From positions 64,001-128,000 of IMG/VR virus record IMGVR_UViG_3300024331_000152: 64,000 bases of DNA; one strand, written 5' to 3'. Positions 7,589-25,171 of this stretch are shown here, piece after piece. Both the position numbers and the translations under genes were made by a program. The notes below the pieces were generated by a model, which did not search any database, was not told the origin of the DNA, and worked only from the letters and a program-made list of their open reading frames with translations. Within the stretch, counting starts at the first letter, position 1. Every line of letters begins with the position of its first letter. The stretch is from a virus. Its lineage: Duplodnaviria; Caudoviricetes.

Positions 7589-7753
7589 ATGCCTCAGCGA
7601 GTCGTAAGGGTTACGATCTGGATTTGTCTGCGATGCGGTCACGAGTGGAGTAGTAAGGATGGTAGTAAGCCAGTCTGCTGTGGGAGCTGCAAATCGCCGT
7701 ATTGGGATCGTCCTAGACAATCCGCAAAACAAAAGGCTACCGGGGGGAAATAA
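7589..7753 (+). CDS. Small Zn-ribbon protein (probably leaderless)
   Basis: CLRCGHEW...PVCCGSCKSPYW; its TAA overlaps the next ATG. Confidence 0.7.
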   Translation: MPQRVVRVTIWICLRCGHEWSSKDGSKPVCCGSCKSPYWDRPRQSAKQKATGGK

Positions 7754-8421
7754 TGGCAACAAAGAAAGCGGCACCTGCGCCAACGCAGGATAGCAAGAGC
7801 GCTGTCGTACAAATCAAACCACCAAAGTTTCAGATTGGTGTTTTTAAAATCACTGGCACAGCACCGTTGGTGATGAACAAGTTTCCGCAAAAAGCCCTTG
7901 AGCAGATGGAAGACAAGCAGCGCGCAGGCAGTCAGGCGCGCAAGGGGCAAAAGAGAGAGTCGAAAGATTTCGAATCTCTCTATGAGGGCGCAAAACATAT
8001 CGCGCGGCAAGGCTGGTGTGGTATCCCAGCGTCGGCGTTCCGAAATGCAATGATCTCCGCCTGCCGTCTCGTTAATTTTAAAATGACACTCGCGAAGCTG
8101 ACGATCTTCATCGAAGCGGATGGTTTCGATAAAGACGAAGGCACGCCGCTGGTGCGGATCACATCCGGCAATCCGAAGCCAGTAAAGATGGCTGTCAGAA
8201 ATGCAACTGGCGTCTGTGATGTTCGTATCCGCCCGATGTGGGACGAATGGTCGGCTGTCCTGCGCATTCGTTTCGACAACGACCAATTCTCACTTACTGA
8301 CGTCGCCAACTTGCTGGACCGAGTTGGCCAGCAGGTCGGACTCTTGGAAGGCAGGCCCGACTCGAAGGCGTCGGCTGGCATGGGTTGGGGACTATTCAGA
8401 ATTGAGGAGGCTAAGAAATAA
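7753..8421 (+). CDS. RAMP/Cas7-like RNA-binding protein (Vipr-like effector 1)
   Basis: ITGTAPLVM strand, GIPASAFRNAMISA, RIRPMWDEW, C-terminal Gly-rich loop GQQVGLLEGRP...GMGWGLF; adjacent pentamer array. Confidence 0.7.
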   Translation: MATKKAAPAPTQDSKSAVVQIKPPKFQIGVFKITGTAPLVMNKFPQKALEQMEDKQRAGSQARKGQKRESKDFESLYEGAKHIARQGWCGIPASAFRNAMISACRLVNFKMTLAKLTIFIEADGFDKDEGTPLVRITSGNPKPVKMAVRNATGVCDVRIRPMWDEWSAVLRIRFDNDQFSLTDVANLLDRVGQQVGLLEGRPDSKASAGMGWGLFRIEEAKK

Positions 8422-8873
8422 TGGGCACACTCTCGGCGAGTACACCAATCATTGACGAACTTCGTGCAATCGCGGCAAAGCACGAAGGTCGTCTTCACGC
8501 AGAAGAAGTTGTCAAAGCCGCCCGTTCTCAGAATTCTCCTTTACATGACAAGTTCATGTGGGACGATACTGAAGCGGCTCATCAGTATCGCCTAGAGCAG
8601 GCGCGCCACTTAATCCGTACGACGATTCAGTACATCGATGTCGGCGGATCGCCGCGCCCCGTGAATGTATTTGTGAGTCTCAGTAGCGACCGTGAAGATG
8701 GCGGCGGCTACAGAGAGCTACAAACGGTTCTCAAAAAGAAAGAGCATCGAGAGGTTCTTCTCGCCGACGCTCTCAAAGAGATGCGGTCGTTTGTGGATCG
8801 GTATGAGACGATCAAGCGGCTCAGTAAGGTCGTCGGTGAAATGAAAAGAATCTTGAAGACAGTGGCAGCATAA
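8421..8873 (+). CDS. Accessory protein of the RAMP-like locus
   Basis: Translationally coupled (TAATG); SPLHDKFMWDDTEAAHQYRLEQARHLI motif; lies between effector and array. Confidence 0.75.
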   Translation: MGTLSASTPIIDELRAIAAKHEGRLHAEEVVKAARSQNSPLHDKFMWDDTEAAHQYRLEQARHLIRTTIQYIDVGGSPRPVNVFVSLSSDREDGGGYRELQTVLKKKEHREVLLADALKEMRSFVDRYETIKRLSKVVGEMKRILKTVAA

Positions 8874-8888
8874 GTACGTTCGGGTGCG

Positions 8889-9372
8889 GCAGGTATGGTA
8901 AGGACGGGGATGCTTTGGAAGGGTTCGTTGTGGTGCGCTTAGGTGAGGCATCGCATTGCAGGCGCGGATAGGTTGGGTTTCGTTCGCAGTGATGTGGCTT
9001 GCAATGGAGATTTGAGCTACGGAGTTGCAGGCATGGTAAGGTTCGCAAGGTTTGTCTGGGTAAGCTGAGCTACGGAGTTGCAGGTGTGGTTAGGCCCGGT
9101 TGGTTAGGAAGTGAGTGGCAAGCCGAGGCATTGCAGGTACGGTTGGGTGAGTCTAGTTCGGGCTCGTCAGGGCGTGGCAAGGTGCGGAGTTGCAGGTTAG
9201 GAATGGTCCGGTAAGGCGCAGTACGGATGCGCCGGGAAGGGCAACGCTTTGCAGGCGAGGAGAGGACTGGTTAGGTTTGCTGTGGTCCGCTCGGGTATTG
9301 CAGGTGTGGAACGGGCGGCTAGGTCCGGCTGTGTTCGCTAAGGCTGCGCGGGGTTGGGCTGAGTGAGGTAAA
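8889..9372 (+). ncRNA. Multi-unit GGY-NN pentamer array (8 units delimited by TGCA; candidate guide array)
   Basis: TTGCAGG at 8956, 9025, 9078, 9131, 9190, 9249, 9298 and GCAGG at 8889; complete units of 69, 69, 53, 53, 59, 59, 49 nt built from 5-mers. Confidence 0.8.
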
Positions 9373-22576: not shown

Positions 22577-23842
22577 ATGCAAGCTTTCTGCCTAGCAGGC
22601 ATGGGTTTTGGGGATGAAGCTAAAGGAGCCGCGACCGACAGTTTGGCCCGCCAATTTCCCGGCGAAGACGTCCTGATTGTCCGTTACAATGGCGGCTGTC
22701 AAAGTGCCCACAACGTGGTCACGCCGGAAGGCAGACACCACACGTTTTCTCAGTTCGGCGCAGGCATGCTGGCGAGCGACAAAGCGCGGACGCATCTGTC
22801 TCGCTTTATGCTGGTTGAACCGTTCTCAATGATCAATGAGTCCCGGGCTCTGAACGCGCTTACACCGTTCGTCTGGGGCCGCACCACGGTAGATGCTCGC
22901 GCGCCGATCATCACGCCGTTCTGTAAATATCTCAACCAGCTTCGCGAGCGATCACGTGGCAAGAACCGGCACGGTAGTTGTGGTCGTGGTATTGGCGTCA
23001 CGCGCGAGCTTCAGATCCGATTCAACGACGACGAGCGAGTCCTGCGTGCAGGCGATCTCCGGGATGAGAAGCTGACGTTCGAAAAACTCATGATCCAGCT
23101 CAAGGCAATCTTCGATGAGATGCAGGATCTTGAACAGCAAGTCGGCGAAGATCCGTCGTCAGAGCGTGAGCACCGCAGGGCGATCCTCGAATGGGTAACC
23201 CGCTACGGCGTATGGCCAGCCAAGATTGTGGACGAGATGCCGAAGTTTACAATCGCAATCTTCGAGGGCGCGCAGGGTGTCATGCTGGATGAGACGTACG
23301 GCACGGCACCGCACAACACGTGGACGAATACCACGTTCGAGAATGCGGACACGCTTTTAGATGAGGCTGGGGTTGACAAATACAGCCGCTACAACATTGG
23401 CTGCTTCCGTACCTACTACACGCGCCATGGGCATGGTCCGTTTCCGACCGAAGATCCCGCACTGGATCTACCAGAAGAGCACAATAACGACAGTGGATTT
23501 CAGGGAGTATTTCGTCGCGGCCACTTCGACTTCACGCTTGCGAATAGCGCGTATCAGGTTGTCGGAGGACTAGACGGAATTGCTCTGAGTCATCTTGACT
23601 ATTTACCTCGGATGGGATGGGATGAGAATGATTTCATCGCGTCGATCAAAGCAAATCTGGGCACGCCGATCTGCATGACAGGCAGAGGGCCAACCGCAGC
23701 AGAACGAGTGTGGAATAAAAAATTCGAGGTGAGCAATGGACGTCCTGCATCAAGTTCTGAAGGAACTCAAGCCGGGGGAGGAGATCCTGTGCTCACTCCA
23801 AACATTCCAGCGGATCAAAGAGAGGTTGAACGACTTCCGTAA
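22577..23842 (+). CDS. purA: Adenylosuccinate synthetase-like protein
   Basis: GMGFGDEAKG, RYNGGCQSAHNV, HGSCGRGIG, FEGAQGVMLD, YYTRHGHGPFPTE. Confidence 0.8.
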   Translation: MQAFCLAGMGFGDEAKGAATDSLARQFPGEDVLIVRYNGGCQSAHNVVTPEGRHHTFSQFGAGMLASDKARTHLSRFMLVEPFSMINESRALNALTPFVWGRTTVDARAPIITPFCKYLNQLRERSRGKNRHGSCGRGIGVTRELQIRFNDDERVLRAGDLRDEKLTFEKLMIQLKAIFDEMQDLEQQVGEDPSSEREHRRAILEWVTRYGVWPAKIVDEMPKFTIAIFEGAQGVMLDETYGTAPHNTWTNTTFENADTLLDEAGVDKYSRYNIGCFRTYYTRHGHGPFPTEDPALDLPEEHNNDSGFQGVFRRGHFDFTLANSAYQVVGGLDGIALSHLDYLPRMGWDENDFIASIKANLGTPICMTGRGPTAAERVWNKKFEVSNGRPASSSEGTQAGGGDPVLTPNIPADQREVERLP

Positions 23843-23921
23843 AAGAAACAGTCAGATCTTGTTGATCGTTCGTCCAGATACTGGATTTCAACGAATCAAA
23901 CGAAAGGAATAAGTTTTTTGG

Positions 23922-24131
23922 GGCGAGGTATGGCCGGGTCAGGTAAGGTCGGCTGGGGTGAGGTACGGTCTGGTGTGGCGAGCTTATGCTCGGTTGGTTG
24001 TGGTGAGGCTAGGTCTGGCAGGCCACGGCGAGGTGCGGTGAGTCGGGGCGAGGTCGGGTCCGGCAAGGTAAGTTGTGGTGCGGTAAGGCTGGCTCTGGCG
24101 CGGTAAGGTTAGGCGAGATGTGGTTAGGCAA
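23922..24131 (+). ncRNA. GGY-NN pentamer array, 42 in-phase pentamers
   Basis: 33 of 42 pentamers start GGY and all 42 have a pyrimidine at position 3; immediately upstream of the second RAMP-like gene. Confidence 0.8.
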
Positions 24132-24155
24132 TTTCAATTCCGGGAGAATTGAGAC

Positions 24156-24797
24156 ATGGCAAGAGGAACGGCAACAATGGTAAACGAGCCGACCAATGGG
24201 GCGGCTGAGGCGATTGCGACTGGACTTCCTTACATCGTCAACGTGACGATTGAAGGCACAGCAGATCTTCTTCTTCATAGCTGGAGTTGCGAAGCCGTAG
24301 AAGAGAAGGCGACAGCAAAGAAGGGATCAGCAGCGAAGAAGACAGATAATTTGGAAAGTTACGTACGTCGCAACGACGATGGCGTAATCTGTCTGCCAAG
24401 CGAATATCTTCGCATGAGTGTCGTAAACGCCGCGAAGTATCGGCAGGACCCGCGATCTCCTCGAAAGTCCGCGATGGATTTATTTAAGGCCGCGCTTATT
24501 AGCCTTGAGCCCCTCTGCCCGATTACTACGGCGGCTGGAGATCTTCCGAGGGTTTGGGAATACGAACATAAGTGTCGCGTGCAAGTGCAGCGCAACGGCA
24601 TCACGCGCGTGCGGCCTGCGTTCCGTGAAGGATGGCGAGTAGATGTACCACTGATGGTAAACTTGCCGGAATATATTCCGACAAAAGACCTGAGCGACAC
24701 GATCACGCAAGCCGGTAAGTTGATAGGTGTGGGAGATTTTCGTCCGTCATATGGACGCTTCCATATTTTAAGTTTTGAAGTTCAGAAAGCGGAATAA
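24156..24797 (+). CDS. RAMP/Cas7-like RNA-binding protein (Vipr-like effector 2)
   Basis: IEGTADLLLH, CLPSEYLRMSVVNAA, RVRPAFREGW, AGKLIGVGDFRPSYGRF; motif order matches 7753..8421. Confidence 0.7.
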   Translation: MARGTATMVNEPTNGAAEAIATGLPYIVNVTIEGTADLLLHSWSCEAVEEKATAKKGSAAKKTDNLESYVRRNDDGVICLPSEYLRMSVVNAAKYRQDPRSPRKSAMDLFKAALISLEPLCPITTAAGDLPRVWEYEHKCRVQVQRNGITRVRPAFREGWRVDVPLMVNLPEYIPTKDLSDTITQAGKLIGVGDFRPSYGRFHILSFEVQKAE

Positions 24798-24798
24798 T

Positions 24799-24890
24799 GG
24801 TTATGCTTTGGCATGCTGAGGTCAGGCGAGCCGAGGTCTGGTCAGGCCCGGTTTAGGCACGGTTTGGCTGGGTGTGGTTTGGTATGGGCA
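24799..24890 (+). ncRNA. GGY-NN pentamer tract downstream of effector 2
   Basis: gcttt ggcat gctga ggtca ggcga gccga ggtct ggtca ggccc ggttt-a ggcac ggttt ggctg ggtgt ggttt ggtat. Confidence 0.7.
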
Positions 24891-24913: not shown

Positions 24914-25171
24914 ATGCTGATGGAAACAGAAGTTTTCCCGGAAACCGGAAGCGTGTTGTGTGTTTTAGACGAGAGCGGTGATTCGCGGTTTATGTGGGAT
25001 AAGGATGACCCGGCGCAGATCGCGAAGGCTCAGGCGAAGTTTAACGAGATGAAGGGGAAGGGCTACGTCGCATACCGCGTCAACAAGAAGGGCGGCATGG
25101 GCGAGGTGATCGCGGCGTTCGATCCGAACGATGAGCGAGTTATTATGCACCGCGCTCTTGTCGGTGGATAG
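24914..25171 (+). CDS. Small protein ending in Gly-Gly
   Basis: SD GGAGG; C-terminus ALVGG. Confidence 0.7.
   Translation: MLMETEVFPETGSVLCVLDESGDSRFMWDKDDPAQIAKAQAKFNEMKGKGYVAYRVNKKGGMGEVIAAFDPNDERVIMHRALVGG

Follow-up and report, generated by a model that had tools for sequence, protein, structure and literature searches.

Identity of the locus

The vipr2 locus is very probably a VIPR (Viral Interference Programmable Repeat) locus, the second of two in the 142.8-kb genome of a soil phage; the window analysed here is a 64,000-nt stretch of that genome. VIPR is a newly described form of RNA-guided DNA recognition with a non-contiguous code and a proposed ancestor of the CRISPR RAMPs. In the preprint that reports its discovery and code, VIPR consists of a RAMP of about 20 kDa and vrRNAs made of YNNGG repeats that flank the gene, and occurs mostly in phages (10.64898/2026.04.26.720920). 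Further preprints give a cryo-EM structure of the filament (10.64898/2026.04.26.720927), phage-satellite competition and solo guides (10.64898/2026.10.15.759431), and the independent recovery of VIPR by a language model (10.64898/2026.10.21.760802). The sequence-only reading from which this work started had recovered the core of the matter, a RAMP-like protein and a repeat that form a system, from raw sequence. Its implied novelty did not survive, the system being already in print in these four 2026 bioRxiv preprints. The vipr2 locus is categorically nothing new and is a clean natural example. It comprises the following features.

23920..24129, + strand, upstream vrRNA array (array A) of 42 uninterrupted NN-GGY pentamers, 33 canonical, read directly
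24130..24155, + strand, array-gene junction with the AATTTCAATTC motif, a 7-bp hairpin and a GGGAG ribosome-binding site
24156..24797, + strand, vipr2, encoding a 213-aa Vipr (ancestral Cas7-like RAMP), from the ORF, PHROG profile, alignment and AlphaFold
24798..24888, + strand, downstream vrRNA array (array B) of 11 units, an extra T and 7 units

The Vipr2 protein

The 213-aa protein matches phrog_4652 (E 2.3e-17, profile positions 6–189 of 194). The Vipr of SUSP2, a phage closely related to the characterised SUSP1, belongs to the same family (E 1.4e-96), and tblastn matches of vipr2 extend to SUSP1/SUSP2. An alternative start at 24177 (Met8) would give 206 aa, as in the public gene call. The family is large, with 6171 proteins at E ≤ 0.001 in a 90%-clustered collection and 1021 cluster representatives at 50% identity. 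The AlphaFold2 model (pLDDT 94, pTM 0.86) has Csm3/Cas7 of type III-A and type VII complexes as its top Foldseek matches in the PDB (probability 1.00, E down to 9e-7, TM 0.5–0.58). The description of the protein as RAMP-like was therefore correct, the model matching the backbone subunits Csm3/Cas7.

The contacts seen by cryo-EM are made by H17, E71/M72, R138, D177, W178 and R179 (10.64898/2026.04.26.720927), and counting the residues of SUSP2 Vipr in our alignment gives the published numbering for each of them. By this alignment H41 of Vipr2 is equivalent to H17, E83 to E71, R153 to R138, D194 to D177 and R196 to R179, and F195 stands for W178. D194, R153 and R196 are invariant or nearly so across 70 homologs. 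In this single-RRM RAMP fold the thumb is a β-hairpin (residues 136–156, approximately) that carries R153-P154, and the glycine-rich G-loop, GVGDFRPSYGRF (residues 191–202), includes D194-F195-R196. To judge from the alignment, the residues that contact GGY are kept in Vipr2.

The pentamer arrays

Array A is described here in the NNGGY phase, which starts at 23920; the GGYNN phase used in the sequence-only reading starts at 23922. Read directly, the tract has the 42 in-phase pentamers that had been counted, with GGY in 33/42 and a trinucleotide ending in C or T in 42/42. The nine off-consensus units are GCT (three), GTT (two), TGC, GCC, GTC and GAT. A sequence search of the tract found no TGCA delimiters, as claimed. 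As RNA, the tract folds no more stably than shuffled controls (z = 0.30). No pseudoknot-like 3′ tail is found in the vipr2 arrays, which have short recurring end motifs and one 5-bp internal hairpin instead. This hairpin, CGAGC-TTAT-GCTCG (23979–23992), lies in phase inside the 42-unit array at the site of its only run of consecutive off-consensus units (13–16). Two guides may meet at this hairpin, or it may be due to chance.

Array B directly follows the stop codon of vipr2, as had been stated; the earlier count of about 17 pentamers is corrected to 18, with one 1-nt phase slip. Eleven pentamers (24798–24852) are followed by an extra T (24853) and seven more pentamers (24854–24888). The array terminates in ATGGG and then AT-rich sequence, an end motif common to the arrays of three related loci (L008–L010).

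When the window was scanned with ten in-phase pentamers, stretches with at least 7 GGY were confined to the vipr2 tracts and the second vipr locus of the window, invariably on the + strand; about 96% of the window positions score 0 or 1 GGY in phase. Chance falls far short of such a signal. Seven tracts of this kind, each on the + strand, were counted in the complete 142.8-kb genome. Scanning the window for tRNAs and Rfam families gave no match.

Two-tetrad quadruplexes could in theory form where GG recurs every 5 nt, and TRAP reads GAG/UAG triplets with 2-nt spacers; on either ground the tracts could be structural elements of the DNA or RNA without a guide role, as two-layer G-quadruplexes or as sites for a TRAP-like ring protein. 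We regard this as very unlikely. The adjoining protein is a Cas7-like RAMP with the residues that clamp G1, G2 and Y3 in the cryo-EM structure (10.64898/2026.04.26.720927), its fold is not TRAP-like, and the strict pyrimidine at position 3 with free NN fits the Vipr structure instead of a quadruplex. Both the ring binder and the quadruplex tracts were dropped because the protein is a Vipr/Cas7-like RAMP, and the tracts are treated below as vrRNA arrays.

The array-gene junction

The hairpin reported between array A and the gene was confirmed and is present in both the MFE and the centroid folds. Its arms are TCAATTC (24134–24140) and GAATTGA (24146–24152), its loop is CGGGA, and the GGGAG ribosome-binding site that it overlaps precedes the ATG at 24156 by 9 nt. 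The CAATTC of the junction motif recurs in 4/6 relatives. The 3′ arm is missing at the equivalent position in related loci L005–L009, so that the translational autoregulation proposed for this hairpin has no comparative support; nothing else bears on autoregulation.

A broader role in cis does have some points in its favour. The array shares its strand with vipr2, which it directly precedes without an intervening terminator, and its 42 units exceed the published guide lengths; Vipr2 could coat its own mRNA leader and so limit its own translation, or the arrays could be decoys that soak up the Vipr of a rival phage, satellite-borne decoy vrRNAs being documented (10.64898/2026.10.15.759431). Against this, the NN positions show the variability of bona fide guides, for which regulatory sites would have no use; relatives do not conserve the hairpin over the ribosome-binding site; and a published array, vrRNA1 of SUSP1, also lies upstream of vipr. 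These points make a cis-regulatory or decoy role improbable, and we prefer to read the arrays as guides.

The gene directly upstream of array A (22577–23842) encodes an adenylosuccinate-synthetase homolog of the PurZ-type phage family phrog_1211 (E 1.5e-55), which also matches Pfam Adenylsucc_synt (E 5e-45). The phage may make 2-aminoadenine (Z) DNA.

Relatives and repeat grammar

Megablast of 10 kb found no close relative in the phage collection. At the protein level, pentamer tracts on the coding strand flank homologs of vipr2 in Phage DSL-LC04, Gordonia phage MakoManhole, Pseudomonas phage Medea1 and E. coli phage SUSP2, and the same flanking tracts are present in six metagenomic relatives with 66–77% protein identity. 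Because the protein family recurs beside GGY pentamer tracts in unrelated phages, the two form a system, as the sequence-only reading had argued from their double occurrence in this genome.

The units obey one grammar. In 393 units pooled from eight loci, positions 1 and 2 are near-uniform, whilst G occupies position 3 in 97% and position 4 in 80% of them, and position 5 is C/T in 96%. Roughly one unit in five is off-consensus, mostly as NNG-Y-Y. The order of the NN dinucleotides is not common between any of the relatives at 66–77% protein identity. Single in-phase runs in the relatives reach up to 43 units (9 + 43 + 20 upstream of the gene in L009), and about 40 units downstream. Array ends in the vipr2 clade tend to ATGGG followed by AT-rich sequence, or to CAATTC just before the gene.

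These comparisons bear on a translated origin of the tracts. One frame (23918..24106) is open for 62 codons and could give a conserved glycine-rich peptide. A 5-nt period cannot hold a reading frame, TA-GGY and GT-GAG units put stop codons in rotating frames, and the arrays of the relatives are wholly different in length and NN content. With arrays this divergent, the conserved peptides that would have contradicted the sequence-only reading are not possible, and we give translation of the tracts scarcely any credence.

In MakoManhole the arrays are bracketed by tRNA-like acceptor/T-arm minihelices (GGGGTTCGACTCCCC; L002:1440-1490, 2775-2815 and 2885-2925). This suggests that guide ends in this phage are defined by tRNA-processing enzymes.

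The statement that no partner gene of about 150 aa follows vipr2 proved right: the next gene (24914..25171) encodes 85 aa and belongs to no family. It has no Pfam or PHROG match and no homolog in the related loci; it was considered as a hidden accessory gene and rejected on these grounds. No conserved neighbour or adjacent accessory gene was found at any of the six close relatives. The homolog in Phage DSL-LC04 (50% identical) has an overlapping 147-aa neighbour. The layout with no adjacent accessory gene and long continuous arrays is conserved in the vipr2 clade, which, as judged from its sequences, would exemplify VIPR working without an adjacent accessory gene. An adjacent vap gene is typical of VIPR but not obligatory: stand-alone vipr genes are reported in the discovery preprint (10.64898/2026.04.26.720920), so that the accessory-less vipr2 locus is within the known range.

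The first locus in the same genome

The other locus of the window is organised differently.

7753..8421, + strand, vipr1, a divergent 222-aa paralog, from the PHROG profile, alignment and hhalign
8421..8873, + strand, accessory gene of locus 1, 150 aa, phrog_15946
8874..9370, + strand, array of locus 1, eight pentamer units of 49–69 nt, the outer ones longer

Pairwise BLASTP between the 213-aa and the 222-aa protein gave no significant match, and the homology needed profiles. The 222-aa protein matches phrog_4652 (E 5e-17, about 185/194 profile positions), and hhalign of a 70-sequence profile of the 213-aa family against it gives a probability of 95.4% and an E of 1.8e-8. With both proteins matching phrog_4652 at E ~1e-17 over nearly the full length of the profile, their claimed homology stands; vipr1 and vipr2 are distant paralogs. 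The G-loop of vipr1, GLLEGRPDSKASAGMGWGLF, has EGR and an 8-residue insert in place of D-F/W-R, and there is an Asn where SUSP has the G1-contacting H17. In the array of locus 1 the pentamer units are separated by delimiters of the form (GAGT/GCAT/GCTT/GTAT)TGCAGG. The residue changes (His to Asn, E-G and the G-loop insert) fit this looser, TGCAGG-delimited array. In one relative, L069 (874–1270), the delimiter style, given for the vipr1-type locus and L069 together as (GAGT/GCAT/GCGT)TGCAGG, and the divergent G-loop recur, along with a homolog of the accessory gene; L070, where this gene has another relative, is without a downstream array.

The partner protein had been proposed to process the RNA, for which we find no evidence; the vap proteins in print bind DNA or are nucleases or helicases, and phage restriction is enhanced by vap1 (2026 VIPR preprints). 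The vap1 of SUSP is phrog_5926, another family than the accessory protein of locus 1. The division into two subtypes fits the preprints, which define seven types differing in arrays and accessory genes. With Vipr paralogs that have strongly diverged and arrays of a distinct style beside either of them, the genome is a ready-made test of guide/effector orthogonality.

Target searches and solo mini-arrays

Targets in the phage's own genome were searched for by sliding guides of 7–12 units along arrays A and B with skips of 0–3, the skip-0, skip-2 and skip-3 scores serving as controls. The skip-1 scores never rose above these controls. This agrees with the published analysis, in which no self-targeting is seen at the 80% criterion (VIPR preprint). 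A seed-and-extend search for a DNA target of the vipr2 arrays over viral, metagenome and genome contigs gave matches at chance number only, which we count against the VIPR reading, and a seeded scan of metagenome contigs gave 0 matches. The best external matches are 20/20 over units 4–13 (in L037 and in the genome contigs L071 and L072) and 18/18 for downstream units 3–11 (in L068), all in a number expected by chance; other seed matches did not extend. The L037 match lies in a portal gene, in codon register, and the L071 match in an XRE-type HTH-like ORF (the HTH-like ORF is from an Embleya genome). Shuffled-guide nulls on the matched contigs were not exceeded and the matched genes are unrelated. 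We regard the matches in L037, L068, L071 and L072 as weak leads.

That no target was found is what could be said further for arrays with a cis-regulatory or decoy role. For a soil phage whose host is not known, however, this outcome is to be expected and missing targets are unsurprising, and the arrays remain best read as guides.

Two solo mini-arrays were noted elsewhere in the genome. One, with 11 GGY-NN units (C1:53168-53222), is found 10.8 kb ahead of the window and immediately follows a tRNA. Over its first seven units it matches 13/14 informative bases at C1:53275-53294, in a gene about 55 nt downstream, with a genome-wide chance expectation of about 0.05; array and match share a strand, and the match, near the 5′ end of a DUF1003-like ORF, keeps codon register so that the skipped base is the wobble base. 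The other, in the window at 1405–1480 and with one irregular 4-nt unit, matches 19/22 informative bases over 11 units at 1768–1799. This match is inside the next gene (start at 1525), in codon register, and meets the 80% criterion; for an 8-unit core (15/16) the genome-wide chance expectation is about 0.003. It could reflect self-regulation, or a guide against the alleles of relatives. Each of the two is the best skip-1 match in the genome and lies less than 300 nt from its array. Both contrast with the published finding of no self-targeting; neither concerns array A or array B.

Proposed mechanism

In two of the preprints, Vipr polymerises with one protomer per YNNGG unit, sequesters GGY and lets NN pair with double-stranded DNA with a one-base skip (10.64898/2026.04.26.720920,.720927). 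The published outcome is silencing of the transcription of competing mobile elements, with phage SUSP1 as the model (2026 VIPR preprints). By analogy with the SUSP1 system, the + strand of the vipr2 locus would be transcribed through the pentamer arrays and Vipr2 protomers would bind the array RNA, one per five-base unit. Each GGY would be held where two adjacent protomers meet, in a clamp of G-loop, thumb and RRM sheet. The NN dinucleotides, left exposed, would then pair with double-stranded DNA, every third target base being skipped, usually a codon wobble position. An R-loop/triplex would form and block transcription of the bound gene, most likely a gene of a competitor (phage, prophage or satellite). 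That the vipr2 RNA is expressed and processed, that an RNP assembles and binds DNA, and what kind of target it has are what we infer from the published system; the public runs listed for the sequence are DNA runs (soil metagenomes), with no RNA run among them, and the contigs examined were DNA from soil and aquatic metagenomes, which carry no information on expression.

Arrays of this length go well beyond the characterised ones and pose the question of what sets the limits of a guide. A joint reading, which we consider doubtful, is that the arrays of the accessory-less clade (40 to more than 60 uninterrupted units) are not diced into 9–16-unit guides and instead form very long or register-free filaments, with the NNG(not-G)Y units, about 1 in 5, as punctuation. 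It would further make the two loci orthogonal VIPR systems with different G-loops and array grammars, and the solo mini-arrays a sign that VIPR has been co-opted to regulate the phage's own genes besides fighting competitors.

Comparison with known systems

The closest characterised system is the type II VIPR of SUSP1 (Vipr, vap1 and vrRNAs), with which the vipr2 locus has in common the family phrog_4652, the RAMP fold and its location in a phage. The GGY-NN grammar is also alike, as is the placement of arrays before and after the gene on its coding strand. Vipr2 and SUSP2 Vipr are about 24–33% identical; the H, R, D and R contacts are common to the SUSP1-type Vipr and Vipr2, and the W of SUSP is F in Vipr2. 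Unlike SUSP1, the vipr2 locus has no adjacent vap gene, and its 42 + 18 uninterrupted units differ from published vrRNAs of ~100 nt and 9–16 units, each with a pseudoknot tail (SUSP1 type II VIPR preprints). The arrays end in short motifs (ATGGG with AT-rich sequence; CAATTC) at vipr2 and in pseudoknot tails at SUSP1. We count against the VIPR reading that the 42-unit array is far above the published length and is without a recognisable structured 3′ tail, and that the accessory gene is not adjacent to vipr2. The stand-alone vipr genes and the continuous arrays without spacer elements that are described in print are like the vipr2 locus. The discovery preprint also describes 'staggered arrays with overlapping vrRNAs' (10.64898/2026.04.26.720920), an architecture which, on that description, may cover the tail-less long arrays of vipr2.

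The two loci of this genome have the protein family, the strand and the pentamer repeats in common. Locus 1, unlike the vipr2 locus, has a divergent G-loop, Asn for His, an accessory gene, an array cut by TGCAGG and looser pentamers.

No CRISPR repeat-spacer array is present among the tandem repeats of the window, and no Rfam CRISPR repeat family matches; no further cas genes were seen in the window, and the neighbours of vipr2 are unrelated to cas. The likeness to class 1 CRISPR-Cas lies in the protein itself. Cas7/Csm3 are like Vipr2 in fold, in the logic of the RNA filament and in a thumb that periodically interrupts pairing; the period is 6 nt in Cas7/Csm3 and 5 nt in the Vipr2 system, where GGY is sequestered and the guide information is non-contiguous.
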